A stretch of DNA of 63,264 nucleotides, counting the filler, from Sluysia triapertura (Eukaryota): assembly GCA_046118255.1 (NCBI GenBank). It is 5 parts of 5 records of this genome, joined end to end, with 100 filler letters (N's around TTAATTAATTAA, not from the genome) between each part and the next. Parts side by side here need not be neighbours in the genome. Positions count along the whole stretch, not along the records: positions 23,693 to 34,909 come from JBJNIA010187235.1; 4 more parts are not named here. One strand, 5' to 3'. Of the stretch, positions 26,360-57,772 are shown piece by piece. A program made the position numbers and the translations under genes. The first letter of the stretch is position 1; each line of letters begins with the position of its first letter. Below the pieces are notes generated by a model. It ran no database searches and was not told where the DNA came from. It saw only the letters and a program-made list of their open reading frames with translations.

Positions 26360-29300
26360 TTATTTATTAACTAATGATTGAACTGAAAGCGGCTTATCAC
26401 GATCCTTCATTTTTTGTTTAAATTTTAATATTGACTTTTTCACAGTTCTATTTCTTAATTTATATTCATTTGGTGCTATCTCACATCTGTTCGCAATCAC
26501 TACAAATGTTTCTGGATCAAATTTGGTAATGTTCTTAACAAATAAGTTAGTGTCGGTAATTTTCATTACTTCATGTGGTCCTTTAAATGGATTGTGTAAT
26601 TTTGATGATTGTCCTGGTTTAGCTAATGTGTGTTCAATGAGCACTTTGTCATCGATCTGAAGATTATGTTCTTTAGCTTTATTATCGTACACATTCTTAT
26701 ACGACTCTTGTGAAAATTTTATTTGTAAACCATCGCGTTTCCAGGCATCTTGTAATCTTTCATGCATTACTGTTGCATATTCCGGCGTGTCTATATATTG
26801 TGACGTTGGTGGTATCCAATCTAAATCTACTGGTATATTTAAATGACGCCCACACATTAAATTAAATGGAGTAAAATTTGTAGCTGGATATACCGAGCTT
26901 CTTTATGCGAATAAACATGGCACAATATATAAGTTCCAATCGGACTGTCGATCATTTACTTATGATTGAAGCATATTTATTAGTGTTCGGTTAAATCGTT
27001 CGCGGATGGTATTGTGGTGCGTAAATCTAAATATGTTAAATATTTTCGCCACTCATTTCATTACGTCACTGATGAAGTTTGTACCATATCTATAAATTAT
27101 TTTTTTCAAGTATTTGTGCAACTGTTTTCGACTTTAGATTTGGCATTGGGTAAGCTTCAGACCATTTTGTTAGATAATCAGCTAATACAATAATATACTT
27201 ATTTCCGTTAATCGTTTCTGGTAATGGTCCCATGGCCGTAAACTCCATAAATGACAATGGTACAGGTATAGGTTTTAATGACACTCTTGTCTTAATTCCT
27301 GTGTTCTTTCGCCTACAGTATATAGAATAATCATTATATCATTTTTTAATATCTTTCATATCTTCCCAATAATATTTGTCATTTATGCGCGATAATGTTT
27401 TCTCATGGATAGGTGTCCACCTAACTGACACCAATTGTATTAAGATTGGTATTACTAATGATTTAGGAATCATTGTTTTCCATTCATCTTTTGAATTTTT
27501 AAATCTGAGAATTCTATTTTTTCCTTGATTTTCAGTTAATGTCCCTTTTGCCAATGAATCTATAATAAAAGCAGTTTTTTATTTTCTCTTTGATGTTTGA
27601 TAATTTCTTTTGTATCTTGTATCTTACCTGATATTTACATGATTTTTAAAAAGTTAATGTTTCCTTTATCATCTACATTTGTTAATCGTGACATACAGTC
27701 AGCGCCTGGCTTATAAATAACTTCTAAATTAAACTCTGACAATTTATTAAACCATCTATTTAGTCTACTAACTTCATCCCTATGATTACACAGATAAGTT
27801 AACGGTTTTTGTCCTAATAGGTAATGTCTAAATAATTTACATGCATATACTAAAGTTAAACATTCATTTCGGCTTTATTTAATCGTCGGCTGGCATATCC
27901 AATAACCGCCTCTAAATTATTCTTATCTTTTGGCCAAAAATTTCCCCGATAGCATAATTATTAGCATCTGTAGTGAGTATAAATGGCTTATTGACATCTT
28001 GAAAGATTAATATCGGTGCGTAGTTAATCGTTCAACTAAATTCATCTAAATTCAACATCTTTCTTTGTCAATTTTCTAAGCGGTTGCGCTGAACTCGCTG
28101 AAAAATTCGCTTGGAAGTTACATTTAACGAACCATAATCCTAGAATTCAACAACTCGTTACGTCAGTGACAGGAATATCTTTGGACAATACAAATATCAT
28201 AACTTAAAAGTAATCATATATTTTTATTATAATCATGTTGGTACTCTTATAATCTTGTTTTATTATTCCTTAATATTTTTTAGAAACGTGGAGAATTTGG
28301 TGTTGAAAAGTGTCAAGGAAATGATCTGCAAGAAACAAACTTTAAGATTAATCATCAATAAATTTTTAAATTTAAGTATAATAGATGTTAATGGTTTTCT
28401 TCATTTATTTAATGTTAAAGAAAATTGCTAATAATCAAATTTAAAGAAATTTAATTCTAATATAAATATAAAACTAAAAAATGTAAAAATTTATTTCAAT
28501 TCAAAAGTTTTTTTTATCTTAAACAAGTCATAACACAACAATCATAATAATAACAACAATACCTTAATTATCATATACTTTAATACAATGATGTTGATGA
28601 TGTGGTATTATAAGAATTACTATACGAAATTATTATAAAAATTATTATTACAATTAGATTTAAAATACAATAACTGTAACTCGTGATAATTATATACAAT
28701 GGCTATGCTTGTTTTTTGAATGAATCGAGTAGTTTATTTAGTGTTCTGTGTATGTAAGAAATGTTCGTATGTGATGAAGTGTGTTTGTGATTTAGATGTG
28801 ATTTCCCTACAATATCCATTTCCATTATCATTTCTTCGGGACATTTTTTCATAACTCTTAATCTAATCTCTAACTTATTTTGTCCTACTTCACAGATAGC
28901 TTTCATTACACCAGTTATATTAAGTGCATCGCCCGTAAATCCCGATAAATGAGATGTATGATTGACAAGATTTTTTAATTCTTTATTTAAGAAATTTTCA
29001 TTAATCAAAGAAGTTACTGCTCCTGTGTCTATCAATGCTTAGACCATTCTTCCATTTACTCTGAATTTGCCATTGGTCTTTTTGAGCCATTATAATTATT
29101 ATTTGACATGTATATACTACATGTGGTGGTGGTGGTGGTGACGTTGGAGTAATAGGATATATTACCTTTTCTGACTTTTTTTTAGTTGTTTGACTTTCCA
29201 TTATTTTTTGATTTTCTACAAATTTCTTCATTTTCATTGTTCTGTAATGATTTCATTATTATATTTAATTGTTGTCTCCTCTGATCTCTCCTTTCTTAGT

Positions 29301-31000
29301 GCATTTGCATGATGGTGTGTGAGATACTTCACTAGAAACGAAAAACTTCCGATTATTAGTTTCCACGTAATAAATTCCAATTACCGAAAATGCTTGAGAT
29401 ATTATTAGTGCATTTACTTTAATTACTATATAAATTCCTATTAGCCCGGAAAAAGCTTGTCCTAATATTAAAAATCTTCCCCATATGAGTTTTGATTTGT
29501 CTTGCGCGGTTTTTTTAAAATGCTCAGGTTCCAATAGTAATTCAAAATTTATTTGTCCATTCGACGGTTGCCGTATCTACCATTTCTGTTAATATTTTTG
29601 ATCTTTATATTGGGAATATTTCCCGCCAAGCCGCTTGAATATCATCATTTGTATAAATACCAGAATTACGTATATTTTTTGTAGCCAAAATTTTAATTTT
29701 CCTTTTAATCCGGTTAGTCCTATGATTTCTGGAGTTTTTACTTGACTTCTATGTGGCAATGATATCCATAAATTATCGTCTATTCTACATTCCGGTCTCA
29801 TGACATTTGAACAATGCATTAATTTCGGTTTGACTTTATTCGGAGAAATTACTCTAATTATCGGTTCTATTTTGCCATACATTATACACACTTCGTTTGT
29901 TCATTCAGTAGTTGATCTTAATTGCATCTCGACATTTTTACACTTGTACGTATATAATACTTCTATTAATCGACCGAATACTCTCTCTTCTAATGGTAGT
30001 AATGGTGCGACTAAATCAGGGTTTGTAATAGCCACTGTTAATTTTGTCCGTAAAATTTCGTTATTTAGTTGGCAATCACGTGTAACCATAATTTGGTAAA
30101 TCTTTGCTAATGATATTGAAGGTAAATGATAATAAAAATCGATTTTATTATTAAAATAAGTGTATAATTTTACATTTTTCGCATCAACTCCCTTTTTAGA
30201 TTGTTGTATTGTTTTTTCTGACAAATAAATTCCTTGGTAATTTGTTTCACTTATTATTGTTCCTTTTGAGATAAATATCAAACCATCTTATTCTCTGTTT
30301 GCCATTAATATTGTCGGTGTTTTGTACTTGATCAATATTTTTGTTCATTTCCTCTGTTGGGTATTCACCTTTGTTTTGATATATAAATCCGGATACTAAA
30401 TTAAATATTATTTGCTTCAAAAATATTAATGAAATTTATCCAACTCAAATTAACATCGATTCTCCTGTGCCACAACTTTATGATCGTGACAATATTCTGG
30501 TCACTCTTACAACATGATCGTGACATAATTGCACCTTTTCCCATATCAAAACTTTCGTTAAATGATTTTAGACTTAGTACATATGTCTCTTGTGAAATAA
30601 CATTATGGTAAATTTTTCCTTCATATTCTAGTGTTCCTTGTTCACACGTTCCGCCTATTTACGGAGGAGTCTTTCGTAACAGTCATTTTGAATGTTATTT
30701 CAAATTCCCGAGTTATAAAAGTGTTATAATAAATGATTTTACGGAACTACGAAATGATATACTTTGACACTTTATCTTCCGTCGATAATTAATCCGTGAG
30801 AATCTGATTTACATATAACATTATTTGCTGATAAACAATATCAACTATAACATAATTAGAATATTCCAATCGTTCTTGAGGAAACATTAACGATTTCATT
30901 GGGTTAATCCCAACATCGTGACACCATCTAATTTGAATTGTTTTTTCTTAACCTCGTCTAGATTTTCCAATTAAAAAGTATATTCTCGTGTGCGATCTGT
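26360..31000 (-). mobile_element. Decayed Ty3/Gypsy element with order env-like glycoprotein - protease - (RT) - RNase H - integrase
   Basis: Protease ALIDTGAVTSLI (DTG 29021-29029). RT end/RH: QPLRKLTKKDVEF..APILIF..PFILTTDAN..IGYASRRL..FRHYLLG..LSEFNLEVIYKPG..ADCMSRL. Integrase: GHLS..KYYW, MGPLPET..KYIIVLADYLTKWSEAYP, ERFNRTL, TPFNLMCGR, GPY/F-like FKGPHEV. No paired LTRs or gag found. Confidence 0.92.
29265..30930 (-). pseudogene. Chuvirus-like (class III, gB-type) envelope glycoprotein, frameshifted
   Basis: In order: CKSDSHG, GGTCEQG..YHNVISQETYVLSL, VDAKNVKLYTYFNNK..IYQIMVTRDCQLNNEILRTKLTVAITNPD..GRLIEVLYTYKCKNVEMQLR, IEPIIRVI..CSNVMRP..IDDNLW, NSGIYTNDDI, then W..F..LGQAFSGLIGIYIVIK transmembrane segment. 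This parallels remembered chuviral G motifs (YVNSK..LY..RC.LE..L..A..NPD..GEV..VKC.PV..LATSGIYT). Confidence 0.8.
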
Positions 31001-32217
31001 TATTTTCATGTCACTAAGCAATACAAGCTTTCCAAAAATTTTCAAATCTTGAATATCATTTAACAAAAATTGTTTCTGTCCAGTAAGTAATATTGAATAA
31101 TTATCATCAACTATTGATTTGCATTTTCTCGAATCAGTAGCCAGTACCGTTACAATTATTCTATTATTGGGTAATTTCAAAAGAGAAAAAGGAAAATAAA
31201 AATAAAAATTGATTAGCTTTTATAGAAATTCAATTGTTATTGTTATTTTATTGTTATTTATGATTAATTTAAGGATTTTGTTTTTCATCTGTTTGGATAT
31301 TTAAATGTTTATATATTTAGTTTAGTTTTATGTATTGTAAATGTGGCATTTTTGTTGTAGGTGTGATATTTTGTAAGGTAACGACTACAATTAAACAGAC
31401 TACTGTTTGAAAATTCTGATATTAACAGTTTAGTATAGTTGAATGTTCATAGATGAGTACTTTTTTTGTATTTCATGAGTAGAGCATGTTTAACTGAATG
31501 GCTTAGTTCTAGATTAATGCCTTATTATATTACACATACTTTCCACAACTCTTATTAGAATTATCTTATGATGGAAAGTGCTTCATTTTTCTATATCATC
31601 TTTTATTATATGTTTTGTTTAGTATTAACATATTTTTGTATTAAACTTTTTGAACTTTACTATTATTTAATTGATGCAATATTAGCAACATATCTCCGGC
31701 TCAAGTTTATTTCAACATGAATACCGGTTATTTGGTATTTAACTTTATTGAAGCTAACTTTTATTTCGTTTATTATCTTTTGATTAGTCGTTTTTAAATT
31801 GTATTTTATTATGTTTTAGATTGTCTTATTTAAGGTAATATGACATCGGCTTGCATATGTAACACATAAACTTTATAAAAGAAAACTTTACTTTGGTGTT
31901 TAATAATTCCACGACAGTTTTCTAATGCTATTTGTAACAACATTTCGGAAGCACTGCTCATTCTAAATTCGACATCATATTTGATAAACTCTTTAAATTC
32001 CGTCATTCTATTGTTAAAACTTCTTCGATGAGATTTGATGCACTTAATCTCATTTCACTCGTTACGTTCTTTGAAATAACTAACTGTTTTAGAAAGTCAT
32101 CTAATTCGTTATATCGCCATTGTTATCACTATCGAAATTATTCCAACAACCAAGTTGGCATCTTCTATTTGAGAAATTTTAGCCAGATAATACCTTGCTT
32201 TTTCTTTATTTCTCAGA

Positions 32218-32382
32218 TACTATAAGGTCCTCAATCGATCATAGCCTTCTTAACCAGCTCTATCCCAAAATGCTAACTTTATTTGCTTATTTGCTTTGCC
32301 ACATAATTCTTAAATACAATTGGACGCAAACTTCGGGAAATTGATCTTTACTAAACGATTTAATACCAACAATTATTTTCAG
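32218..32382 (-). pseudogene. RhoA-like GTPase N-terminal fragment
   Basis: KIIVG..[37 protein letters not shown] versus RhoA [44 protein letters not shown]. P-loop deleted and two stops. Confidence 0.9.
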
Positions 32383-32770
32383 TCATGGTAATTTGGAACT
32401 TTATTTAAAGGGTCGACAATTAAACGAGATAGAGATATTTACGTTTACAATTCATAATGCACCATTATAAAAAAGTGTATTAAGAATCTATTTTCCTTTT
32501 TAAAACAAAGGTTAAAGGACCATTCCATTGTGCAGTTTACTGCCATTTTACTACTGCCGAATGAGCTTTATTCCTGTGAATCTCCTTTAGTTTTCTTATG
32601 TGCTTTGTGTATTATTTTTCTCATTCTGCATTTAATTGTATCCTAAATGACCCTAGCTCCAGTTTATTGGATTTACTCTATGGAGCTTGAATTCTACCAA
32701 GTTCGTTTTCAGTTAATGCGCTAATTACTTGCAATACTGGGTTTTAATGTTTCTTGGAAAAGTACTTTTA

Positions 32771-32836
<66 letters not shown>

Positions 32837-32991
32837 GCCTTACTTTAACGTTTTATTAATTTTATCATTATCTTAATTTATTTTTTATGTTAAATGATAC
32901 ATTATTTTTATAATAATATTATGAGTAATATTTAAAATAAAATCGAACAAAAATGAAAAAATCAAAATATTTCCTTTTTGATTTCATGCAG

Positions 32992-33237
32992 ACACAATCA
33001 CATCAATATGAAGCAATTTATTCGATGAAATTCAAATGTTCCATGGATAATCAAACAAATATTCCTTTCGTTGGCTGTAATTCTATTAGTTATGGTGTAG
33101 ATCAATCAGTGATTCAACAGTTTCAATTGGTTCCTGTTAATTTCACAGAAGGATGTGTGCATCAAAATATGTCCCCACCGGCTATGCTTGAAATGGTTTT
33201 TAATAGAATTAATACCAACATTTCCATTATAGTACAA
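32992..33237 (+). CDS. Candidate internal exon of unknown gene
   Basis: Stop-free 82 codons bounded by cag and gtaaaa in phase 0, higher GC than the flanks. No family recognised. Confidence 0.35.
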
Positions 33238-34836
33238 GTAAAATTATTGTTATTATTATTATTATTATCATTATTATTATTATTATTACAGTCATATCTC
33301 GATTTAATACAAACTTTTATATATTGCCATTTTTATGTATTGCAAATATAAATACAAATTAACTATGATGATTGCTTTTATTTACAATAATAGTTTTTAA
33401 ATTTAGTAATTTTATAATATTAATATATGAAATTTTGTTTTTTAGTAAAATAACTAAAGTATAGCAGGCCAATATTTAAAGTAATTTATTTTGTTAATTT
33501 TTTTAAAGCTTTATTTATTGCAATTTTTCTTTTAATGCCATAAAATATGAAAAACAAAAGAAGTCAATAAGTCGTCATATGACTTTATTATTATTATTAT
33601 TGTCATTATTATTCAAAAATGAAAAATTCAATATTAAAATCAATTATACGTACACACAAACTTTAGAAAGAATCAAAATGTAATTAAAATGAGTAGTTTA
33701 AGGAACTTTTCTGTGCATCAAGGGACAAATTTCTTTAAAAACTGTTTTATTTGGAAAATAAACATTAATAAATTACAAAATTAAAATAAAATGAAAATAT
33801 AATTTTCAATAAATTTAAAAATATCTCAGTAATCATAAAATAAAAGTAACATTAAGTTAAACTTATTATAAAATGAATTGGTATTTTAAACAATACGATT
33901 TAAACGATTATAAGTTATGCAAAGTGAGTCACCGTATTTTTAAGTGTAAGAGTAAGATACACATGAATGTTCAAACAGAAAATTGTAGCAAATAAGAATT
34001 AATAGTAATAATAATTGAATTTAAATGAAAACTAAATTTTTAAATTTAAATATTTAATGGAATCAAAAGTATGTCAATTATTTAAATTATATTGATTATT
34101 TAAATGAGATTATCCAGCAAATATGGAAATATTAATTTTAAATTGTATGAGACAAAAATTATGATTATCTAGTAAATACGTCAATAGGTTAATTAGAAAA
34201 TATTATTGTATTATGCAGTAAAAATGTGTTATTACAAAAAATATGCATAAATACGACGTTGTTAATAAGGAAACACACAATTAATTAAAAAGTTGTAAAG
34301 TAACAACTACGCATACGAAGAAAGACGCTAGCTATTTATACGTAAAGGACATTCGTTTTCACTTCGATGCTATACAATAAACAAATTGGTGCAACAAATT
34401 ATTATTCATCTTTGGAGAATATTTTTGTCTGTTTCTGTAAGTATATTCTCAAAGTTTAATCTTCTTTAAAAGAAGATATATAATTAATTATATAATTTAA
34501 TTAATTATATTCATTTAAATTATATTCATTTAAATTATATTCATTTTGAATCTAGTTTAAGCTGGATATAAAGTCTGACTAAAATGGAAATAGAAAGTAA
34601 ATGAATATACATATGATAATATGGCCAATTAAATATTATAGCATAAAATTAAATAATATTTAGACGAAATTGGCAATAATATATATAAACATATCTTGGC
34701 GTGATTACATGATTAAATGATTAATATATTATGATTTTCGTTTTATTTTAGTTTATTTAGAACTTGTTTCAATTTTATTCTACATAATAAACACAATGTT
34801 TACTGTTTTACAAATTATCAGAAGATTTTTAATTGC

Positions 34837-34909
<73 letters not shown>

Positions 34910-35179
34910 NNNNNNNNNNNNNNNNNNNNNNNNNNNNNNNNNNNNNNNNNNNNTTAATTAATTAANNNNNNNNNNNNNNNNNNNNNNNNNNNNNNNNNNN
35001 NNNNNNNNNTCGTGTTTAACTCCTTAACGCGAACTTTTTTGAAAATGGTTAAGCTTGATTGAGTGTTCTGTTAGGAAATTTAAAATGAATAGTCTGTGCC
35101 CATAAACGTCACTTAGAACTTTGCATGAAACATTTTGAGAAACCGTATTAAATTTTTGATACTGAGTTTATCTTTACAG

Positions 35180-36576
35180 GTTACAAATAGCTCTAGTGTT
35201 ACTGAAGAAAGTCGTAAGCGTGATAGATTTAACATTCAAAAAGAAATGGAAAAAATTCGCAATAGTTTACAAACGGTAACAAAAAATATTCATCCAATAG
35301 GCAAATTAATCGATTTCTTGCAAGAAGATATTGATACGATGCAAAAAGAAAGCGATAAATGGAAACTTGAAAAATCGGAATTGATGAAAAAATACAATGC
35401 TGAAATCAGGTTAATTAATTTATAACTTCTTAGGACAATTTTAAATTTGTCATATTATTTATTACATGAGCTATTAAAAATTTTCAAAAGGTAGTTTTAA
35501 CAATTTTGTTCTTTATTTACTGAAAACTATTAAAATTAATTGCTCAGTATAATAAAGCTTTATCTAGTGACTCGGTGTTTGTTAGATGAATGTTTATATT
35601 CAAAATGTTTTCTGAAAATGCCTATCAAGTTAAATCATGTTATAAATGTTATAATTTTTGTTACACCTTTGTTACGTTTTTAAGCTAGAAGCCTGGATTT
35701 TATTATTAAGCATAAAGAATTTTTCTTAGAAAATAAAGAATTTACGATAAAATTGGAATTTTGAATAAATAAAATACAATAAAAACTAATTAATGAATTA
35801 TTTAAAATTCCAATTTTATCGTAAAATCTTTATTTCCTAATAAAATGTACTATTTTATAATTTTAGATGCTACTTATTTTTTTAAATTCATTGAATTTGG
35901 TGTAGATTAAGTTACATTATTAAATTCCATTAACAAATAATTAATAATGATTATATACTTGTCGATTACAATGTACTAAGTCCCCAAGGGTGTTAATGAT
36001 CCGTTTGAAGTTTTTTCTACCAACTAAAATTTTTCGTATTAACAAGAATTCTGTACGTTAATGTATCGTTTCTATCATCATGATTTATATTGTATTTATC
36101 ATTATTATCTTATGTTCATATCAAAGCACCATTCTTTGCTGAGATTAAGATGGCTCATTGATTTTTATCTTCATTTTATAACATTTCTACAGTTCATGCC
36201 TCCCTGAATTTTATTCTGGTCAATTTCGTTGCTTTGACATGCTTTTTTAAGCGTTTTTTCCTATTCATTGATTGAGGTAGTCTGTTTTGATTTATTTTCT
36301 GAGTTTGACAAAGTAAGTTACATTTTTTACTTTTTCATTTGGTAATATCATTACTTAATAATTTACTTTATTATTTTAAACTTAGTTTTAATAATTCAAT
36401 TAAAAATAATTTTTAGTGTTACAGACAAACTAATACAACCAATTAAAGACAAAATTGATGAACAAAATAATTTGACAAAAGAATATACAGAAATCATGGC
36501 CAAATTAAAGTCTCAGATTGCAAGCAACTCCAAGAAAATAGATTTGATTCTCATTAATAGTTGCAGTGTAGCGTAA
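35180..36576 (+). CDS. IFT54: Intraflagellar transport protein 54 (TRAF3IP1/MIP-T3), last two exons 35180-35409 and 36417-36576
   Basis: KEMEKIRNSLQTVTKNIHPIGKLIDFLQEDIDTMQKE..W matches the conserved C-terminal coiled coil ([37 protein letters not shown]). A phase-2 GT-AG intron joins it to SVTDKLIQPIK..IASNSKKI..stop. The 5' part is beyond the contig edge. Confidence 0.92.
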
Positions 36577-36877: not shown

Positions 36878-38918
36878 TTAATAATGATGCTGTTGAGTAT
36901 TTTGAACAACTGTAATTATATCAAATATCTTTTAAATTGAAAGCTCAGAGTCAATGTATGATTTAAATGCAATAATATTACCAGTTTATTGTTAATAATT
37001 AACTTTATAGATCGCTAATCTAAAAATTGCAATCAAATTTCTAATGTTATCCCAAATTAAAATCCATCTAGCTCAGTTTAATCGAAGTAATAATTAACTG
37101 CTGTCCTTTAACAAATCTAATCTAATGCAACTTAGTGTTCAGATTTTATCTATAAACAATTATGAAAAATACGCTAAAACGGGTCCGCCTATAATCTAAG
37201 TTTTATATCTCACGGAAGACTTATAGGATTATATTATGTCAAAAAACTGCGAAAGATTCCTTATTATCTAATAATGGAAGGTCTTTATGTGTAAAACTTT
37301 AATTGCACTTTTAGAGTCAACTTATAAATCAAACTTTAATCAATCCTTTAGCTTTTCACAATTAATCCAAGAATCAAAAACAAAAAAATATAATACTAGA
37401 CGCATTCTATGAATATTTATTTAAATAAACTAGGGTTGTTTTCAATAAATAATTTTACAATCAATTATACACAAAGAAATATTCAATAATATAATAATAA
37501 ATTAATTTAATATTTTCAGGATTGCTCCTAAACAAATTATAATATAATTTTAAAATGATTTTAACCCAGGTGAATACTTGGGTGTGTAAAAATTAATGCG
37601 ATTTTGAGTTGATTTTAATACAGTATATCACTCTATAAAACTTAATATAAATAGCTTACAGTTAATAAATATTTCTGTGAATTCCAATAATCGAAGTTCT
37701 CTCGAGTAACGATTCCAAGCAATGTCAATTTCAACCGACAAATAATTTTTCCTTGAAGGATTATCCAAAGTTTCCAACCAGTAAATATTTATTCTATGAT
37801 TCCGACTTTTCAGTAACGATCCAATTTACAAAGATGTCTTCGAATATTCCAATAATTATGTATACCAAATATTCCACCGAATTATGTATACCAAAGATCA
37901 AAATTTTTTAAATGTCTTTTTTAACTATGTTTTTAAACGAAAACCGTGAGCTATTTATATAGAGTTCCTTACTACGTGTAACACGATAAAAGATAAAATA
38001 AATTAGTTTATTCAGAAAGTAATTTTTCGATTACATATATTATTTGATAAAATTACAAATAGATAATTATTAATTGTTTAAAGGTTATAGTACAGATAAT
38101 AATTACAAATGTTATAAATCAATAGATTATTTTAGCTAAATAAATGTAGATTATTTTTGTACTTTTTAATTAATTAATTCTTTTAAATATTTTTTCTAAA
38201 TTATAAATTTACAAAAATTTGTCTAATTTTTTAATATCTACATTTTGATATTTAATATCTACATATTCGTATTAGTGCTTCTATTAATTAGTATTTAATA
38301 ATACTCCTATTCGTATTCGTATTTTCATTCGTTTGTAATAGATTAAATACACGTAAGCTTTATTTTCTGTGCTTTTCTCATTTTATCATTAATATTGATC
38401 CATTAAAATTTTTTAGCACACTTTACATTTTTCCATAATAATAATTAATATTTTTAATTTAGAAATTAATGAATTATTTGTTTTATTTGTGCTTTTATGA
38501 CTTTACAAGAAATATATTTAAATTACAAAAATGATAATTAGTTTACGAAACTTCTTCATGTATAACTCGTTGCTACATGTAAGTTGTAAAGACTTACTAT
38601 ATTTTCATATAAATTAAAATATTAAATTATTTTTATTATTAATATTAATATTAATATTATTATTAAAAAGTCAAAAAATCTATAATTATTACCAAGACCC
38701 CAAACAAATTTCAAAATTTGAAAATGATTTTATCGATAATTGCTAAGCATTTGGTAATTATTGATGCTCTAAATGATCTACAATTTCTTATTCAAATGGT
38801 TCGCAAAATGCTTCCTATCAAGCAACGTGATGTCGGGATTATTAAAAGATACCGCTAATATGCAAATTCAAATCTACTTCCGATATAATTGATGAGGCGA
38901 TGTAAGAGTAATATAATA

Positions 38919-39107
38919 AACCGATAAATGAATTGAATATTAACCGATAAATGAATTGAATATTAACTGATAAATGAATTGACTATTAACCGATAAATGA
39001 ATTGAATATTAACTGATAAATGAATTGAATATTAACTGATAAATGAATTGAATATTAACTGATAAATGAATTGAATAATAACTGATAAATGAATTGAATA
39101 TTAACTG
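38919..39107. repeat. 23-bp tandem minisatellite, 8 copies
   Basis: Unit aac(c/t)gataaatgaattgaatatt, head to tail with no spacers. Confidence 0.95.
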
Positions 39108-41625
39108 CTTCGGTTGTTCCGTTAGAAATTTTGTATTACATGTAGTAAGAAGAAAATCAGTATATTGCTAATAATATAAGACTAACAAATGAACATTCTT
39201 GAGGTTCTGAAGTGTTTCGAGAATCAACAAATGTGTTAAATTTAATAACCAATAAATATGTGAAGTTGATGTTAGGATTATCAATGTCGATAATTATATC
39301 TACATTACTTAATGCTTTAATAATCATCCTTTTCAGATCAGATGCTGATAAAATAAACAATAATGATCCCTTTGTAAAAATCTATTGCACGTATTTTTAT
39401 TAACTGTTATTTGACATTATATTATTAGTTTTAGTTAAGTACAATAAAATAAAGGTTATTCTAAAAATAACTGGAATAGCTATTGTTATTTCTCTTATAA
39501 CTATGTCTCTTGTTCTGTGCATATTAGAATGTTCATCAATATTAATTTACATACAGTCTTTTTCTCATATTATTTCGTTCATAGTGTCTGTGTCATTTTA
39601 AATTGTTTCTTGATGATCATTATTGTTCTAACTATATGTGATTTAATCCGTTATTATAATTCGCATAACAATCAGATTATTACTATGTTCTTACTGAAAT
39701 ACATCTGCTTTTCTAATTATTTGATTGTACACTATCTATATGGTATCGAAAATCGCTCCAATGCAGTGTGTTGGTAAGAATTTTGTTTGTATATTTTGCA
39801 GTGTTGCTTTTGTCAATAATATAATAATTATTTTCTTGCGTGTTTTAACAGTGCAAACTACACTACAGTCAGAACTTTTTCTTGATTATTTCATAATTAA
39901 TTTCATCATACAGCCAATTTTACTCAATAATAAAATACATTTTAAATCTTATTTCATTTATCACATTCTCTATAATAATTCTGGGTATATTTCCATCGCT
40001 TTATTTATTTACTATTTTCTATATTCCAGTTATGTTATTGTACATTAACATCCGTTTTTATTTTATTCTGTAATATAACTTTATTTATATCCTTCTTAGT
40101 AGTAATTCATGTTTATTCTATACAGCTCTTTTCTTGACTAATTAAATTTTGTAAGCTTCAATCTTATTTTTATCTTTTCGATGTATTTATTGAGATGCTT
40201 TTCCATTTTCAAATTTCTGTTTGAAATAGTAATAGTTATTGGCTCGCGTTCGAGAGAATCTCAAAATTAAATACAAAATTATTATTATTATTATTAAATC
40301 AGAATTCTAGACTAAAATAAAAGCGTTGTTTCCAGTAGCTTCAAAGAGAAAACAAAGAATAGAGTAATGTAATATAAAAGGGAAAATATAAAGGTAAAAT
40401 AGGTAAGATATATTTGGAATAATCACTTTTGATAAGTGTAAAATAAGTGGAATAAGTGTATACTTTTGTCATTACGAGTAAGTGTAGTAGCTCAATTAAA
40501 GATAAAATCTAAAATAAATTAAATTTATGATATAAATATTTAGAGAAAATTTGTGAATTATATGTGTACAGACAATATATAGTCTAATGACAAACTAATT
40601 AAAAATTCGAAGATAAAGATAAGAATGACAAAAGTAAATATGAATTTAAGTTTTTCGAAACAAGATGAAGGGAATTTTTAAGTTTATCCTTTGTTTACTC
40701 TAAATAATAAATCAATAAGTCGGGTAGCCCAGCCATCTATTACGATTATATTATGTCATAAATACAACATACACACATGAAATCTCATTTTGAACTCACA
40801 TAAAATACTTCATCTTAAACGCATATTATAACATGTCTCGGGCATAACATCACATAACACTACATCGATTCACATATCTCCGTTGCTAAGTGTCAACCTG
40901 TAGAATGATGCTTCATTATTAGTTCCTACTATAAAACGAACAAGGAAATAACTGTTTTTGCAGTTTGAATTTAACTGGGATGCAGTGGCGTGCCAAGGGA
41001 GGAGCAAGACCTCGACATCACTGGTCAAAAGTCAATATATATTGACTGAAAAAGTCTAAATAAGAATAGTTTATTTTATCTTTTCCATTTGTACAACCGT
41101 GACATGCCACCAGGCCTGGCATTCAAAACTTGTCTATCACACTTATCAGCATCTATAAATTCAAATTGCCCCCTTTGTTAGTATCGGATTTATGGGTTAA
41201 ATTTTTAAATGTCGAATTTAAATATTTTAAACAAAGCAAAGTACCATTTCATAATATTAGTAGCGTCAAGACTGAACGTTTCAGTCTTTTAAGGTCTTTA
41301 AGTACACTATGTAACGTCCAGATTACTAAAATAATAATTATTATCAACGGAAAAGTCGAAGGTTTAATACGAAATAAAAGCAAAATTATTCGTCATACCA
41401 TTTCGGAATCATCAAGTTCGATCATGTTATAACCATATCATCTTGAGTTATCCGGTATTATCTTGTATTTGTAAAAACATTTTACATTTAGCTGGGTACT
41501 GCCGCTGCTCATTTATTACCTACCAGCTTTTTTTTCTTCACAGTATTAGAAACAAAAATTCGCATTATAATTGGTTTCAACTGATTCGATAATTCTTTAA
41601 TAATTTAATAATATAATATTTACAG

Positions 41626-46147: not shown

Positions 46148-46439
46148 CTACAATTAGAAAACCGGCCTAAAATGTAAAACGAGTGTAAATGTATAATTAT
46201 AAATTGCTGTATTTTTCGTAATTTAAGCAAAATATTAAAATGGGTGCGTCTATACTATTTAATAAATAAAACACGAATAAAATATTACTTATTTATAGTT
46301 TCCAATTTTAGTACACTTTTAATTATTATATTGCATTTAGTTAAATAAATTTCGTTTCAAAAGTAAAGGGCACATTATACAAACTTTTTATTTTAGATAC
46401 TACAATACCTCTACACACCTTTTTGTCATCGAATTAATC

Positions 46440-46730
46440 AATGTATTTACTTTTTTTATTTGAATATTTTCCCCAACATCCAAGTAATGCAAGTATGCGA
46501 TATCCAATTATTTGGATAGTACTTATAAAAAAGCAATGGAAACAAATGGGTCGTCCTAAGGCACTTTCTAATCGGCAGAAAAGGAGTTTAATAAGGTATG
46601 CAAAACATAAAGCATTGTCTACAACTCGCAAAATGTCAGATTTAGAGCTAAACTGCAGTAAAACAACAGTATGGAGAATACTAAAAAATGCATGTTAAAC
46701 CTCCACTTACTGATACTCATAGCGCTGATA
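46440..46730 (+). mobile_element. Tc1/Tc3 transposase DNA-binding-domain fragment
   Basis: GRPKALSNRQKRSLIR..LELNCSKTTVWRILK followed by KPPLTDTH. Confidence 0.85.
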
Positions 46731-48544: not shown

Positions 48545-50667
48545 TTAACATGAAGAAATCGTATCAATTTTTTAATTATTACAATTCTGTTTTCATTTAC
48601 TTATTTTGTTTTGACTTTAAAAATTGTAATAGAAAATTGCTTTTACTAAGTTTATGAAGTTGGAGACGGCAATGATGATACATTATTCAATTTTAAGTGA
48701 GATTATGAAAATTTAACATAATTTTTATTTTGCTCAAATTATAACAAAAGTAGTAAATGACTGAAATAAAGGAATCTAGTTTTGGAAAATTTATATATAA
48801 CTTAGTTTTTAATTCATTTGTTTGGCAGATGTATACGTTATTCTCATTGTCATTTTACATGATGATAAACTTAATATTAAATAACAAAGGTGCTTTATAC
48901 TTTTGAATCTTTGTATTGGTGTATTGCGAAATCAAACTGAGCTTTGATTTTTTTTGTTCAAACACTAATTAATACGATGATTTATTGTAATTATTAAAAC
49001 AATTTAAATTGAAAAATATAAAATTCAATTTATTGAGGCTTATTCTTTAGCAACCAACTAAAATAACACTTAGGGGAATATAAGAAAATTAGTTAGTAAC
49101 TTGTTTTTCATTCATTATATTTTAGTTAATACGGGTGCAAAATTTATTTTATTTGAGTTGTAATTTTTCAATATTAGTAAATTTTTAATATTAAAAGATT
49201 TGTAATTTTGAAGTTAATAATGAAAGACGTTTTGTTATTAAAGAATAGTTTGTATAGTAGAGGTGTATTGTTATAAAAGAATTTTCATTGTATACTTGTG
49301 TTTTTATAAAAGAATATATAGAGATCCGATTTGCTTAATTATTGGGTTATAGTTTCATAATTTAAGGTAAAAGTATAAAAGACACGACACTTCCTTAATA
49401 ATAATACAAATCGATTTGTTATTTGCTTAATAAATCTTTGTTACTATTTAATTTTTTTCAATCTAGAATTAAATTTAACATTTATTAAAATCAGAAAGAT
49501 TCAACTCAAATATGTTGCGTCTTTAAAAAATTGTTAAATATTAAAACTCAATCTTAATGTCTTGATCAGTTGAAACCGTAATCCCTTTTTTATAACTATG
49601 TCAATAACTATTATACCAAATTTAAATTTTTTGACAATCAAATCAGAACTAAAACAATAATGTACTATTAAATAAAAACCAAAATAGAATTTATTATTAT
49701 TATGAGTCTTCACAAAATGAAACTAAAATAGCAAAAGTAAAATAGCGATTACAATAATAACGAAAATATTACAATTTNNNNNNNNNNNNNNNNNNNNNNN
49801 NNNNNNNNNNNNNNNNNNNNNTTAATTAATTAANNNNNNNNNNNNNNNNNNNNNNNNNNNNNNNNNNNNNNNNNNNNAAATTTTACAACATTACATAGTC
49901 ATAGTAAACTGTATCCTAGCCAAAACCCATATATAGCTAGGTGTAAGAAACTAAATTATTTATAAAATTTAGTAAGAACGAATTGTATAATAAGTACAAT
50001 TTATAATAGAATATAGCCAAGTATATACAATAATCATGGCAATAATAAAAATACTAGGAAAAAATAGTTTATAAAGGCAGCAATTAGAAACAAAATCACA
50101 AATTGTTGAAGTACTTAGTGTTCGGATTGAAGTTATTGATGTTTTATTTAATTAATATTGGTCAAGCTATTGAATTTACATGTAGTTTATATTGAAAAAA
50201 AATAATATTTGGTTTATATTTGTCATGTTATTTGAATATTCAATATTCAAGTATTCGTGTGCTCAAATGTTCAAATCAAATGCGTACGCATTCAAACTAA
50301 AAAAATTCAAATCTGCATTAATAAAATTATTAAAATAAATAATACGCTAATATTTAAATTAAAATATTTAAAGATAAATTTTTGTTTCTTAACCTATATA
50401 TTTATAAGTGTTAGAACCGAATTGAATTTATTACTGTGATAAATAAAATTTACTCAGACAACTTTAAACTTATGTTTAGTATAGTTCAAGTTCACTTTAA
50501 TCCTTCAATTAGGACAAATAGAACCCCGACACTCAATTGTTTATTCATAATAGTACGAATTTGAGTTTAATTAATTAATAAATTAATAAATTATAATTAA
50601 CAGTAATATTAGTAGTAATAGTAATAGTAGTAGTAATAATAATGACAATGGTTATAATAATAATAAC

Positions 50668-53600
50668 TTCTTTTAGCTGTGTGTTTGCATTAGAAGACAC
50701 TACAATTTCTTCGTTTTCATCTTTTTCCTCCACGGAGATGATTTTCTTAAAAAGTTTTCATTAGTAAAACATTGAAATTTAAAATTATTTATAAATGCAA
50801 TTACAAAATAACTTATATGTATTGAGAAAATGAGACAAAAGTTAGAAACATATTTTTTATTCACTCTTAAAATATGAAATATTTTTACTTACCGTGAAGT
50901 TCCGTATTTAATGCGCATCCATGTTTAATGAAAAAGTTGTATATTCAAAGTATCAATACCATAAAATAGTGGTAGGCAACATTTTTTGGCGTAATGAACG
51001 GACTCATTAGTTGTTGATGGACAATATATATTTACTTAAATGTTTAAAGAAAAATAATTTTAACACTTAATCTTAACACTTTGATTAAGATTTTACTTAA
51101 TCAAAATTAGTTAATACAATAGTTTTAACTGAACTAACTACATAAAGTGAATAATTAACATCATCGTGATCATCAACTTCAGTATAAAATAATTTTTTTC
51201 ATTTGTAATTCTTTCAAGTCATATTAATCACTTTTGTTGTGTAATGTCAACACAAGTATTTAACTTATTGTTTCCAAAATTAATAATATAGGGTTTTTCA
51301 TTTAATTTAAGCCCCTTGTTATTTAATTTAATCCGGACTTTGAGGCTATAAGTTATAAATGAAAAACGCAGCAGTTAATAATGAAATTAGACGTGAAATC
51401 TGTCGAAGGTTTGAAAGCGGAAAAACAATAAAGGAAATATCTTTAGATTTTAATATAAATTCTAAAACAGTTTCTTCTATAATTAGTGTTTTAAAAAGGA
51501 TGGAAGAACTGACAAACTTGGTATTCGTGCACCTAGAGCAACGAAAATCGGAGAGAATGAAAAAAATTAAATAAAAAGTATCATTGAAGATGATGTTTCA
51601 ATAACATTGGAAAGACTAAAGGAAAAACTATCTTCGAACTTGAACATAAATTGTTCTATTTCAAAAATTAACAGACCGATAGATAATTTTAATTATAGTT
51701 TTAGCGTATTTCTTTGGTTCTGTAAGGTCGAAATACAGAAGCTAATATTGAAAAAAGAAAATATGCTAATTTGATTCTTCCACTAGAAGAAAACGATTTG
51801 ATCTTTTTAGATGAAATGGAAATAACAAGGAACAGCTATGGACGAAGTTTAAAAGGAACAACTCCCACCGAAACTGTCGCATCCGTAAGGAGTAAAAATT
51901 TTTCAATTTGCGCAGTGATGTCAAAAACATCACTAATTCAATTTAAAATTTCAGATAAGGCATTTACTGGGAAATCATACTTTTCTGCTATCCAAGAGAC
52001 TGTTGAAAAACTTATTCAGAACAATTTAAAATGGTAGAATTCTCATAACTGATAATGATTCGATTCATAAATTAACTCGAATCCATGAATTTTGCACATT
52101 TAATGGTTTTCAGATTGTTAAAACCAATTAAAGATGTTTTTAAAAAATTGAAAAATTCGATTAAATCCAGAAATTGCAGAACAGAGGAAATTTTTGATCA
52201 AAGCCTTTGAGAAAGTTCCTTTCAATTAAAGAAATTTTTATTTTACCGTCTTTTAATGGAATGAATATTTTTATAATTATTAGGGTATAATTTTTATCTT
52301 TTTTTCCTACCAATAATTTTTATGTTAGTTATTAAAAGAATTAAATTAATTATTATGTGTATTTTTATGATGGCCTAAAGGCACACAAAATTGCATTAAA
52401 ATACGATTGATTTTTATTAAAAAATCACAAATTTACTGATACGTAATCACAAGAAAAGTTATACTTGAAAGTAATTTACGAATTTCATGCCCTATATTTA
52501 ATAACATGTTCTGTTGAGTCATGGAAGAATTAGATCAAAATTCAAACATTCTACCTAATGGTAGTTTTAGTGGTGAAAAAGAATTAAATTCAACAATCGA
52601 CTCAACTGTACAAATCGTTGGTCAAATCAAATGCATTAGGGTAGCCATTTATAATTTTGCAAATAAAATCGTTTCAACTACGAGCCATAGCATTGTTTCA
52701 AAATGAACGTATTCTTTGATACAATAACTTTTGAAATGAATGGCATTAGTTATAATTATAATTTAAAACCGAAATATTTGAAAAGTTTTTTTAGTTGTTA
52801 ATTTGCGTAGATCTTAATGTTAAAAGGAATATCATATATTACAACCTAATGTAAGTAATGATACAACTTGATAAACACTTGTGTCGATTAATGTGGTATT
52901 TTTGCAACTTGCCAAACATGTTGTTATTTGTATATTTCATTGTACACATGTATTTCGTTGAATTTTGTTTAATCGGTTCTTGAACACCTATTTTATCTTC
53001 GAGTCAAATGTCGCCAATACAAAATTTTCTGAACCAAATGGCAATGCATTTTACACTGCAAATAATATTAAAATTCTATTAAAATTATATTGTGTTCGAA
53101 TTGTACTTCGAATAAACCCTTTTATGCTTTTTTGAAAACATTGTTATTGTTTTAATAATTTGTTAAGTATTAATTTATGTACAAAAATTATTTTTAGTAC
53201 AATCTAATAATGTTGAAAAATTATTTCATTACTATTTATTTGTTATAAAATAAAAGCTGCTAAATTATATTTTAAATCAAAATTGTTGAAGGAAGTTTTA
53301 AAAGGGGAATAATAACGGATTGAAAATAATTTTTATGAAAGTTGTTTTTGCAATAATATCGAATATTGATTTTCTAAGTATTGTCAAAAGTACAATTCCT
53401 TAAATTATACGAAATGGTGCTTATTATTTAAACACGAATGTTAAATAAGGCGTAAGACTATATAAACTAAATTATATAAACCATATAAACTAAATTACCA
53501 TATAAGTTACTAAATTAGGTTTAGTGAATAAAATAAAAATATTTAAACTTATTTAAACAAGATGTTAAAAGTTAAAAAAAATCACAAAAAACACTAACTT

Positions 53601-54408
53601 GATTGAATATATCGTCATCATTAGTATTACTATTAGCCGCACTATTAAAAATATTGTCTGAAGTTGATTTTGAGGAAACCATAAATTGATTATTGATCAA
53701 TCCATTATCACTTACTTTTGAAATCTGCTTGTGTTTATCTTCTTGATCTAATGTGGTGGTTTTACTAGTATTAGTTAATTTACTTGGAAGAAATAAATCA
53801 TCATCATCATCATCAATATCAACTTTACTATTTGACACAGTTTGGTTATCTAATTTCGATTTCGAAGATTCAACTGGTATTGCAGCCGTAGACTTTGTTA
53901 TGGTAGTATTTAATGGTTGTTCCTTTGTCACTGTTTCTTTGACGATTGAATTTTTAACAGAATTAACTTGTGAATTTGATGATCTCAAGCCAGATTTTGG
54001 TTTGGGATTAAATAAATCATCTTCATCATCATCATTCCAATCATCCCAAAGACCTTTAGTGGCAGATTTAACAGCTAAACATTATTTATAATCGTTTTAA
54101 TTAAACGCATAATTTCTATGTTAAAATTTTAAGCACGTTTTTATATGCACAATCGGTAATTGTCTGTGTACAAAAAATTCATGCAGCTGTAATGTAACTA
54201 ATTAATAACAAATCAATATACATTACTTACAAAAATATGTAATTAAAATGAAAATTATTAGGTGAGAAAATGAAGTCCAATTCAATTTAAAGTGTTCATA
54301 TAATTATAATTTAAATTACGCGAAATAAAAAATTATTTCATAAGATTGCATGAGTCGAATAAAAATTATGTAATAATTATTATTATAATTATGATAATTA
54401 TGATTACG

Positions 54409-54461
<53 letters not shown>

Positions 54462-55048
54462 GTTATATTATATAATAGTATAAAAAATATTGTAAATATA
54501 ATTTGAAGTCTAACGTATTTTTGATTTTGATTTCTCGTCATTCACTTTACTAAGTACATTAGATTTTGGTTTAATATCAAACAAGTCATCTTCGTCACTA
54601 AAAGATACGGATTTAGTATACTTTTTATCAACAGTTGTTGAAGTAGTAGAAACATCTGTATTTGTTATTTTAGTTGGTTTTTGACATTTATTATCTACTG
54701 TATATTGATTATTGAGTGATTTTTTAGTTAATTGTTCAGTAAAATCATCATCATTCTTATCGTCAATTTTATCATGACTATCTGCTGTTTTCAATGTATC
54801 AATAATATTAGCTTGATTAGTCGGTTTAGAAAAACTATTTGAAACATTAGTATTCGATTTTGTTTGGTTTTTCAGTGATTTCTCAGTTAATTTATTAAAG
54901 AAGTCATCATCATCATCATCACTAAATAAGCCACTTGATTTTATTGGTGGTTTTTTAATTGCACTTGTATTTTGAAAATTATTAATCCAATTATCATCAT
55001 CACTATCATCATCTTTAACATTATTCTTTAAATCTTTTTGTATGGTAC

Positions 55049-55114
<66 letters not shown>

Positions 55115-57772
55115 CATTCAATTTTTCGTTATCTTGTATATTTGATTTAGTTACATTAACTGATATATTTTCACTCGACTCAATATCGCTATCGTTAGAT
55201 CCGAACAAATCACTGATGTTCAGTTTGACTTTTTGACTTTGTTTATTATCGACTTTAGAATCAATAGACGGTTGTTTTAGTTTATTTTGAGATATAATTT
55301 TATTTTTATTTGAATCCATGAATAAATCTGATGAAGCAGAATTTTGGCGAGATCTCTTAGTGCCTACAGTACCTTAAATCAAATTTAAAAAATGTAGTTA
55401 TAATATATTCATAGTAATAATAGTATAATTATAAATATAAATAAATAAATAACTATATATGTGATCAGATTTATCACTTTCATTCTCTTCTGGATTACAT
55501 TTCTTCGATATTTCATTGATTAATGCATTTTGCTGAGGATTTGTGGACATATAAGATCTTTTAGGTAAAGCTTTTTTATCATTTACTACAGAACTTTCAT
55601 CTTTAAATAATGCTGATGGATCGATATCCTGCTTAATAAATTCATTATTAAGAATGACATGATTAATTAATAATTATAAGTACCAAAAACATAAACACTT
55701 ATTATTTAATCTACAATATATTATGCAAATTGGAATGAATATTAACTAATGCATTATACTTAATTTTATGTTCCACATTAAAAATTTTAGCACTTTAAAA
55801 GTAAATCTTAGTCGGATTTAAACATATATCTTTTATAAAGAATTTTTGAAATATATTAAAAGAACACAACGTTTTGCTGAGAATACAGTTTTAAAATGTC
55901 AACTAAATGTGTTACATCAGTAAAAATGCAACCTTTGTAAACCACTGAAACTTTATTTTACATTTCAACTTCTGCTTCACTAAATGCATCTGAAATTAAT
56001 TCATTTAACTGATCAGTATACCGTTTACATATCACCAAAGAAAAATATCCAATCGCTCTTCTTCAATCGTATTAATGTTATAACAGAACGAAATATGAGC
56101 TTGACAATCATTAAATAATTGATTGACAAAAGTAATATGGAAAGCCTTCAGACGAATTTTATATGTTAAGACTTTTCTTATGTAAAATACAGTATTTCCC
56201 TTAAAAGCTTTTAATTAAACTTGTTTAATTTATTATTAATGAATAAAACAAATGATTTATTTTGCTATAATTTCAATTGTCTGTGCTTCATTTATGTCAA
56301 ATTTTATTAGTTATATTAGTAAATCTAGCAAGAAACAATTTCAATGGAAAATCAGGTTTCAATTTTTGTTTAAAAAATGTTTATTTTTGTTCTAGAAGTA
56401 CAATTAAATGTGTTCAATTAAAACATTTTTGATGCTTTATATTTTAATATAATGTTAAGATTTATAAACTTTGTCAAAATTTATCAACATATGCAAAATA
56501 CAAAATAATCATGTTGATATTAGAATCAAAATTAAAACAGAGAAACATTTACTTTCATAAATATTTGCATGAGCATCATCTACAAAAGTTAAATTGCAAA
56601 TTAAAGTTTTAACACATTACGCATAATTAATAAATATACATTTTTATGTAAATCAAAGCAAACTTCTTTATCGAATCCAAAAATATCTGATCTAGAGTCA
56701 CTGGATTCAGAACTAGATATTTCTTTTCTAATAGGTTGTATTGAGTTCGTTTGTTTTACCGCTAATGGAGACGTACTTAGACCATCATTATCTGATTCCG
56801 TATTATCAATTTCCATCTCGTTTTCACTTTCACTTTCACTTTCGCTTTCACTTTCTTGATCATCATCTTAATATTTTTAAATATTATAACTTCTGATTAA
56901 ATGTAAAACAAAATTTTATGTACAAAATTTCATAAATTAAACAAGTAAATTTTAAATGATCGACTAATTTAGAAAACATTTAGTATAAACATTTTTTTGA
57001 AAATTTATACTTACATAAGTAGCCAATTCCTAAAGTATCATCTTCAAGAAATTCTGAAGTGCCAATTAAGTGAGGTAAATGCCGATTCTCGTAAGGATCT
57101 TTTGGTTGAAAAATAGGCTCATTTACCTGAGGAGTTTCTGTTATCATATTAACGTCATCAGAAGTACCGTTTGTGTGTTCAACCGAATCGCTTGTACTTT
57201 TATGCCTCAACACAGAATTACTACGCATTACTTCAAGTATTTCAAATTGAGTATCTAATATCTTAGTATTATTTCACAATAAAATTTATATTTTACCTCC
57301 ATTCCTATTTTTAAGCTTTCAGCAATTTCTTTATCAGCTATTTTTATTTTTTCTTCTTTTAAAACTGCTAACTTATCATTAGATGCATTACTAACAATTA
57401 CACTCGTAGCAACATCTTCAACTAACTGCAAACAAATAATTTAAAGCTAAAAATTACATTTTCCATGAATTGCATATTTGCTAACATACATAAATCATTA
57501 AATGAATTTTGAACCATAACATTAGTTGCCTTAATTTCGACAGAATATTCTGACAGACGAGAATTTATTTCATTTACATCTTTGAGCAAATTTGTAGATA
57601 GTTTTTTTAATAGTTCACATACCTAAAATTAAGTGTATATAAATTATTTATATACTCCAGAATCTGCTGCTAAAGACCATTTCTTGGAGGAAGAAACGAT
57701 TTCATTCAAATTCCACGGCCTCTTCCAAGACTGTTCGGTGTTAGAATTTACCATGGTGTCATTTGATGTCAT
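50668..57772 (-). CDS. WASHC2: WASH complex subunit 2 (FAM21); exons 57772-57656, 57622-57458, 57425-57297, 57261-57015, 56866-56664, 55628-~55460, 55372-54515, 54074-53599, probably 50745-50668; 3' end not resolved
   Basis: WKRPWNLNEI..WSLAADSG, KATNVMVQNSFNDLCMLANMQFMEN and PKDPYENRHLPHLIGT match the FAM21 head. The tail has acidic LFa-type motifs (GLFSDDDDDDFF, FSDEDDLF, DDDEDDLF). GT-AG junctions keep frame; the exon 6 donor is ambiguous. Confidence 0.93.
51359..52230 (+). mobile_element. IS630/Tc1-superfamily (DDE_3-type) transposase relic in a WASHC2 intron
   Basis: HTH GKTIKEIS..NINSKTVSSII, then DDVSITLE, LIFLDE..YGRSLKG..RSKNFSICA, and ILITDNDSIHK. Frameshifted. Confidence 0.85.

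Follow-up and report, generated by a model that had tools for sequence, protein, structure and literature searches.

A decayed Ty3/gypsy relic in Sluysia triapertura with a gB-like envelope glycoprotein ahead of protease, RNase H and integrase, probably of Burro type

A 63,264-nt stretch of DNA from Sluysia triapertura (GenBank assembly GCA_046118255.1; hereafter the window) carries a broken retroelement in which an envelope glycoprotein gene (env) precedes the enzymes of pol, and this raises the question of whether the order is that of a real element family or an accident of decay and juxtaposition. An earlier note, made from the sequence alone, had described a Gypsy element with a chuvirus-type glycoprotein (G) upstream of pol and had suggested that it may represent an undescribed architecture. 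The window is composed of five pieces joined at 12048-12147, 23593-23692, 34910-35009 and 49778-49877 by artificial spacers of 100 nt, each made of a 12-nt all-frame stop linker between two runs of 44 N, so that adjacency across these joints carries no evidence; the element is confined to the piece at 23693-34909. Our reading, to which we give a probability of roughly 0.9, is that 26027-30655 on the minus strand is a decayed Ty3/gypsy copy with a glycoprotein B (gB)-like env directly before protease (PR), RNase H (RH) and integrase (IN), likely descended from an element of the Burro type, in which gag, env and pol are encoded as one polyprotein.

To define the domains, we translated the minus strand in three frames and ran Pfam on the six frames of 26001-32500, reading stops as X. 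From high to low coordinates the minus strand yielded a Monjiviricetes_fusion glycoprotein, an aspartic protease, an RNase H and an integrase zinc finger, and the three plus-strand frames of 26001-32500 yielded zero Pfam matches. The glycoprotein matched PF24664 (Monjiviricetes_fusion) with E 1.6e-18 and 66.5 bits, against a curated cut-off of 27, which bears out the proposal of a glycoprotein relic upstream of pol on the same strand, although the relic is shorter than had been supposed. A profile built from eight intact relatives aligned with 30655-29358 over positions 151-605 of 633, and tblastn with the relative P0003 extended the tail to 29261, placing the env relic, a gB-like (class III-type) glycoprotein by Pfam, tblastn, profile and fold, at 29261-30655 (minus strand). 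About the first 150 of the 633 profile positions are absent, that is, the copy is 5′-truncated inside env, and the remainder is interrupted by stops and frame changes. The start had been placed at 31180; however, 30656-31180 is without env homology, 30656-31219 has no family, PDB or atlas match, and at the 30655 boundary the summed contig depth from one sequencing run falls from ~99,000 to 29-52, as low as in the flank. On the missing homology and the drop in depth, we rejected 30656-31219 as part of G.

A hydrophobic, predicted transmembrane segment of env at 29400-29456 (minus strand; mean hydropathy 2.06 over 19 residues) aligns with its counterpart in P0003. Identity of the window env to its nearest relatives is ~35-40%, making it a divergent member of the group. 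The earlier note had proposed a structural check for a class III fusogen, and here the predicted structure of the X-read env fragment (predicted local distance difference test, pLDDT, 78.9) matched chu-like glycoproteins in a viral structure library with a best E of 3.4e-11, and that of the intact relative P0008 (pLDDT 84.5) matched herpes simplex virus (HSV) gB in Foldseek with E 2.8e-14. These predicted models support the assignment of the window env as a class III-type fusogen, so that the outcome which the note had named as counter-evidence, a protein lacking any class III match, did not arise.

The hydrophobic segment sits ~370-430 nt ahead of the protease DTG motif (~29030), in agreement with the spacing of about 400 nt given before. 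What lies between is a decayed coding linker at 29069-29260 (minus strand), recognized by its length, a YP motif and its purine bias, and it contains neither a long terminal repeat (LTR) nor gag, as had been stated. The distance from WGRF to DTG is 451 nt (150 codons), compared with 131-225 aa for 11 of the 13 relatives, the other two having 371 and 391; the YP motif stands at the same offset as in P0004, P0006 and P0009, and the purine bias resembles that of the coding parts. The aspartic protease relic with its DTG motif follows at 28802-29068 (minus strand; Pfam Asp_protease E 4.4e-05, 57 bits with our own profile).

Beyond the protease, the regular succession of pol domains is broken by an AT-rich stretch (28100-28801, GC 0.227), where ~700 nt of unrelated sequence occupies the position of the dUTPase-like and reverse transcriptase (RT) region. 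A repeat at 28628-28809, which recurs at 11358-11532 with 78% identity over 183 nt and is unrelated to the element, starts exactly where the protease homology stops. Searching the entire window with a profile made from the dUTPase-like and RT region of six relatives revealed no RT, so the RT listed for this element in the earlier note is not there, and the distance from protease to RH is ~353 codons compared with 549-581 aa in all six relatives, that is, ~200 codons shorter. Because the relatives possess RT, its absence from the window copy would be a loss through decay. The RNase H relic lies at 27674-28098 (minus strand) in three frames, matched by Pfam RT_RNaseH and RT_RNaseH_2 and by profile, and the integrase relic, comprising the H2C2 zinc finger, the core and a C-terminal part, at 26363-27521 (minus strand; Pfam Integrase_H2C2 E 0.03, profile independent E-value, iE, 4e-66), with 40-45% identity to five close relatives. 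PR, RH and IN thus stand in the pol order of Ty3/Gypsy (Metaviridae) elements, as had been recognized before. The element had been thought to end at 26360, but a second decayed protease-like domain lies 3′ of the integrase at 26027-26316 (minus strand; profile matches with iE 2e-07 and 0.0038, or 25.8 and 12.1 bits, where the maximum for 2130 shuffled control chunks was 4.6 bits). A protease is found at the equivalent post-integrase place in P0004 and P0150 and not in P0009, P0025, L001 or L002; across the relatives P0003-P0150 the protease is multiplied, with 1 to 6 DTG-type motifs 3′ of env. Over the whole relic, 16 stops fall in 9 of 13 homologous segments, with several frame changes, and gag, the env start and RT are lost; the copy is therefore dead and incapable of function, as the earlier note had concluded.

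Since the window copy is broken, we turned to its relatives for the gene order. A HMMER search with the env frame against 1.84 billion representatives gave 147 matches, 12 of them at E<=1e-30, and these 12 and six weaker ones were scanned with Pfam. A protease follows env within the same open reading frame (ORF) in nine of the 12 closest relatives, the other three ending without one. The earlier note had held that copies with G downstream of integrase would make the locus a junction of two nested or tandem elements; pol stands ahead of env in 0 of the 12. Seven relatives (P0004, P0009, P0025, P0028, P0150, L001 and L002) carry env, PR, RT, RH and IN in a single frame. Upstream of env, P0006, P0013/P0152, P0028 and L002 have gag or a zinc knuckle, and a single ORF spans gag, env and pol in L002 and P0028; that of L002, of 3703 aa, encodes gag with zinc knuckles, weak ubiquitin and weak Bcl-2-like matches, env, two proteases, RT, RH and IN. 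The matches to these accessory domains are below the curated cut-offs (Bcl-2, E 0.00096 in P0008; ubiquitin, E 0.018 in L002), and P0150 has an ankyrin match. Most full-length relatives also have a signal-like hydrophobic segment 5′ of env, and a transmembrane-like segment lies 3′ of it. One ORF of the intact relatives thus covers gag, in some cases ubiquitin-like and Bcl-2-like domains, then env, at least one protease, RT, RH and IN. Because they carry env and pol in one ORF, the proposal that G formed part of the pol polyprotein or lay immediately before it appears to be right for the window element also. A metagenome scan gave at least two related loci, and none were found in viral_contigs and genome_contigs. 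No LTR pair was found in L001 and L002, the DNA of which stops near the ORF.

We next asked whether env and integrase of the window point to the same relatives. The env tree held 48 rows, 47 of them drawn from the 147 matches (98 were long enough; all close ones were kept and distant ones subsampled). The window env falls inside a 15-row clade (97/90) together with all 11 labelled env-pol proteins and apart from P0047, the one labelled chu-like virus G, to which its identity is ~20-30%. The label 'chuvirus-type' would therefore be valid at family level only, that of the shared Pfam family and fold. In 8-row trees of env and of IN, five relatives, identical in both trees, group with the window to the exclusion of P0025 and P0028 (100/100 and 100/99, respectively), and the env and IN scores of the relatives correlate (Spearman 0.82, n=7).

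The env-before-pol order has already been published, and the window is a further example of it rather than an undescribed architecture, since the published anatomy agrees. Arkhipova and Yushenova (2019) described planarian Burro elements with gag, Ubi/SUMO-like, BCL2-like, env, PR, dUTPase-like, RT, RH and IN in one ORF (PMC6431247); the same source characterizes the env of Burro/GYPSM1 giant Gypsy-like elements as similar to mononegavirus fusion glycoproteins and lists ankyrin repeats. As in that description, env of the window's relatives lies in frame between gag and pol, and a weak Bcl-2 match (P0008), a weak ubiquitin match (L002) and an ankyrin match (P0150) are present among them. The window copy differs from Burro in being without gag, accessory domains and RT, with no LTR pair found; furthermore, section 7 of PMC6431247 makes no mention of a post-integrase protease or of a membrane module at the C terminus such as that of the relatives. 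Chary and Hayashi (eLife 2026) reported that gypsy elements with the order GAG-ENV-POL and an ENV of the HSV/gB type occur in Nematoda, Bryozoa and Platyhelminthes, and stated in that text that such elements are not monophyletic (PMC13524379). Among these, the Platyhelminthes_C1a errantiviruses share gene order, env class and multi-copy state with the window element, the env motifs of which resemble, by eye, those of Schmidtea mediterranea elements 1-6; as presented there, they are intact and often LTR-flanked, whereas the window copy is dead, truncated and without the first part of the ectodomain. The element therefore likely belongs within the Burro lineage, as judged from the published descriptions and from env motifs compared by eye. 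Chuvirus (Jingchuvirales) G and the env of Anakin-type BEL/Pao elements (Dezordi 2020) share the Pfam family and fold, but chuvirus G has ~20-30% identity and a separate place in the env tree, and the BEL-like P0103 has env after an integrase tail. Troyka, on what was taken from PMC12440569, was considered as a comparison system and set aside as not relevant.

Several observations weigh against this reading. No LTR pair was found within the window and no gag adjoining the copy, and a single ORF spanning env and pol cannot be demonstrated in a broken copy. The match of the window env fragment to herpes gB in the PDB is weak (best E 7e-3, nothing at 0.001). The IN tree is a limited test, as its eight rows were all selected via env and include no ordinary Gypsy outgroup, and an independent integrase search among longer proteins found nothing, which is weak evidence. 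Last, the foreign repeat between PR and RH means that the two halves could derive from two copies of the family.

If the env-PR half and the RH-IN half were indeed two copies of one family joined around the AT-rich gap, the architecture of the family would be unchanged. The missing RT, the start of the unrelated repeat at the end of the protease homology and the fact that no contig spans the stretch fit such a junction, and because the relatives have several proteases, the one after env need not be the one that precedes RT. Yet the halves lie on the same strand, in family order and less than 1 kb apart, they have the same closest relatives, and a single deletion with an insertion is simpler, so we consider a two-copy origin unlikely. 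A different kind of accident, in which the 3′ env of a gag-pol-env element, or a chuvirus endogenous viral element, came to lie beside the pol of another element, could be suspected in a copy that is heavily decayed and devoid of gag and LTRs, the more so as P0103, a distant env match, has its env 3′ of a BEL/Pao-type integrase tail; P0054, another weak match, has env fused to RNase H, and both are outside the clade of the window. This explanation is largely refuted by the single-ORF relatives, and the counts of pol and protease around env in the 12 closest relatives, the matching length and motif of the linker and the concordance of the env and IN trees all speak against it; the window env is, moreover, set apart from P0047 and linked to PR, RH and IN, which is not what a chuvirus endogenous viral element would present. 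We regard it as the least probable of the alternatives.

Whether the element could be of the nematode NERV type instead of the flatworm Burro type is a question of lineage rather than of order, because NERV elements are likewise Ty3/gypsy (Metaviridae) elements with env before pol (Sacco et al. 2022, as cited in PMC13524379), so that the gag-env-pol order alone fits both. An atlas cluster of one host exon is labelled Nematoda, with the phylum given for 1 member only. By eye, however, the env motifs GTCE, CGTGESML, TPTILM and TNYQGIYLS match the Schmidtea rows of Platyhelminthes_C1a in the eLife supplement and not its 18 nematode rows, which look unlike the window env, and the Bcl-2-like and ubiquitin-like domains of the relatives fit the Burro description. 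A nematode affiliation is thus highly improbable, only slightly less so than an accidental order, and a decayed member of the Burro type remains our preferred reading.

For an intact member of this family, the order of domains suggests how one polyprotein might serve both sides of the membrane. The env ectodomain would enter the endoplasmic reticulum by means of an internal signal sequence, and the transmembrane segment of env, acting as a stop-transfer sequence, would return the chain, and with it the pol part, to the cytosol. Host signal peptidase, together with the proteases of the element itself, would then release Gag, Env and Pol, and the gB-like Env would enable fusion of the particles with neighbouring cells or with germline or stem cells, allowing cell-to-cell spread. 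Processing, particle formation and infectivity are predictions here, and this too weighs against our reading.

The relatives that extend past IN (P0004, P0009, P0150, P0025, L001 and L002) all finish, six of six, in a membrane-protein-like module that makes up the C-terminal 350-480 aa and consists of a signal-like hydrophobic segment (sub-threshold in L001), ~240-350 aa and a transmembrane-like segment. These modules are very divergent, being alignable only between L001 and L002, at 22%; neither Pfam nor the PDB gave an informative match to the module of the relatives, and it was not detected in the window. Separate ORFs farther downstream, at L001:10617-12107 and L002:12085-13473, match RNase_T exonuclease (E 1.4e-05 and 0.0011, respectively). 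The C-terminal module is a candidate second envelope protein. Fusogens of the gB type often need a receptor-binding partner. As a doubtful extension of our reading, we can picture a Burro-like enveloped lineage at high copy number in a non-planarian host, the polyprotein of which would supply two glycoproteins for entry, namely the gB-like fusogen encoded ahead of pol and its receptor-binding partner, the fast-evolving signal-ectodomain-transmembrane module that follows integrase.

The abundance of the element was gauged from one public sequencing run, possibly the source of the window itself, in short contigs of which none spans the stretch. That run was the one listed as containing the stretch; no RNA run was. 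On 25200-32700, 8645 contigs aligned, mostly at <95% identity, and the summed depth, which is not a copy number, amounted to 6,000-320,000 across the element, with 756 in the bin lying within the gap, and to 15-194 in the flank upstream. Such values suggest that the copy belongs to a large family of diverged repeats. The peak, 319,681 in the bin 25702-25952, falls in a highly repeated stretch at 25700-26020 that adjoins the element and is possibly its 3′ part or a separate repeat; it has no protein match to the C-terminal parts or downstream ORFs of the relatives. On another piece, unlinked to the element, a gag relic at ~5900-6700 (minus strand) comprises a stretch resembling capsid and a degraded zinc knuckle, and weakly matches gag from the relatives (iE 0.007 and 0.08).

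The host DNA in the window is AT-rich and intron-bearing, from a eukaryote with an IFT54-like gene, an exon of which gave mixed taxa in the atlas; the env affinity, together with the composition of planarian genomes, would suggest a planarian host. This gene and that for ribosomal protein uS3 lie on pieces of the window other than that of the element. Further features of the window are IFT54/MIP-T3 exons, an acidic SDD-rich gene, Tc1/mariner-type relics and tubulin and kinase fragments, spanning 35129-36573 (plus strand), 53572-57273 (minus strand), 46438-46695, 51359-52037, 387-596 and 3408-3725; the acidic SDD-rich gene presumably resembles the WASH subunit FAM21. A tandem array of ~8-9 copies of a 23-nt unit lies at 38893-39110. 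The gene for ribosomal protein uS3 at 10059-10721 (minus strand) is intact, intronless and very divergent, without a close database relative, and is near-equidistant from the best uS3 chain of the PDB (131 bits) and the human one (117 bits); its top PDB match was discarded as an artefact of a doubled chain. It is possibly a divergent paralog, the product of a fast-evolving host or part of a foreign piece.

What the window adds is a modest gain: a divergent member of a large repeat family, together with intact relatives that display its anatomy clearly. The entry mechanism of gB-type errantiviruses is stated in PMC13524379 to be unknown, and if the C-terminal module of the relatives is an attachment protein, it would bear on that mechanism. 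If the host is not a planarian, the element would also widen the range of Burro-like elements.

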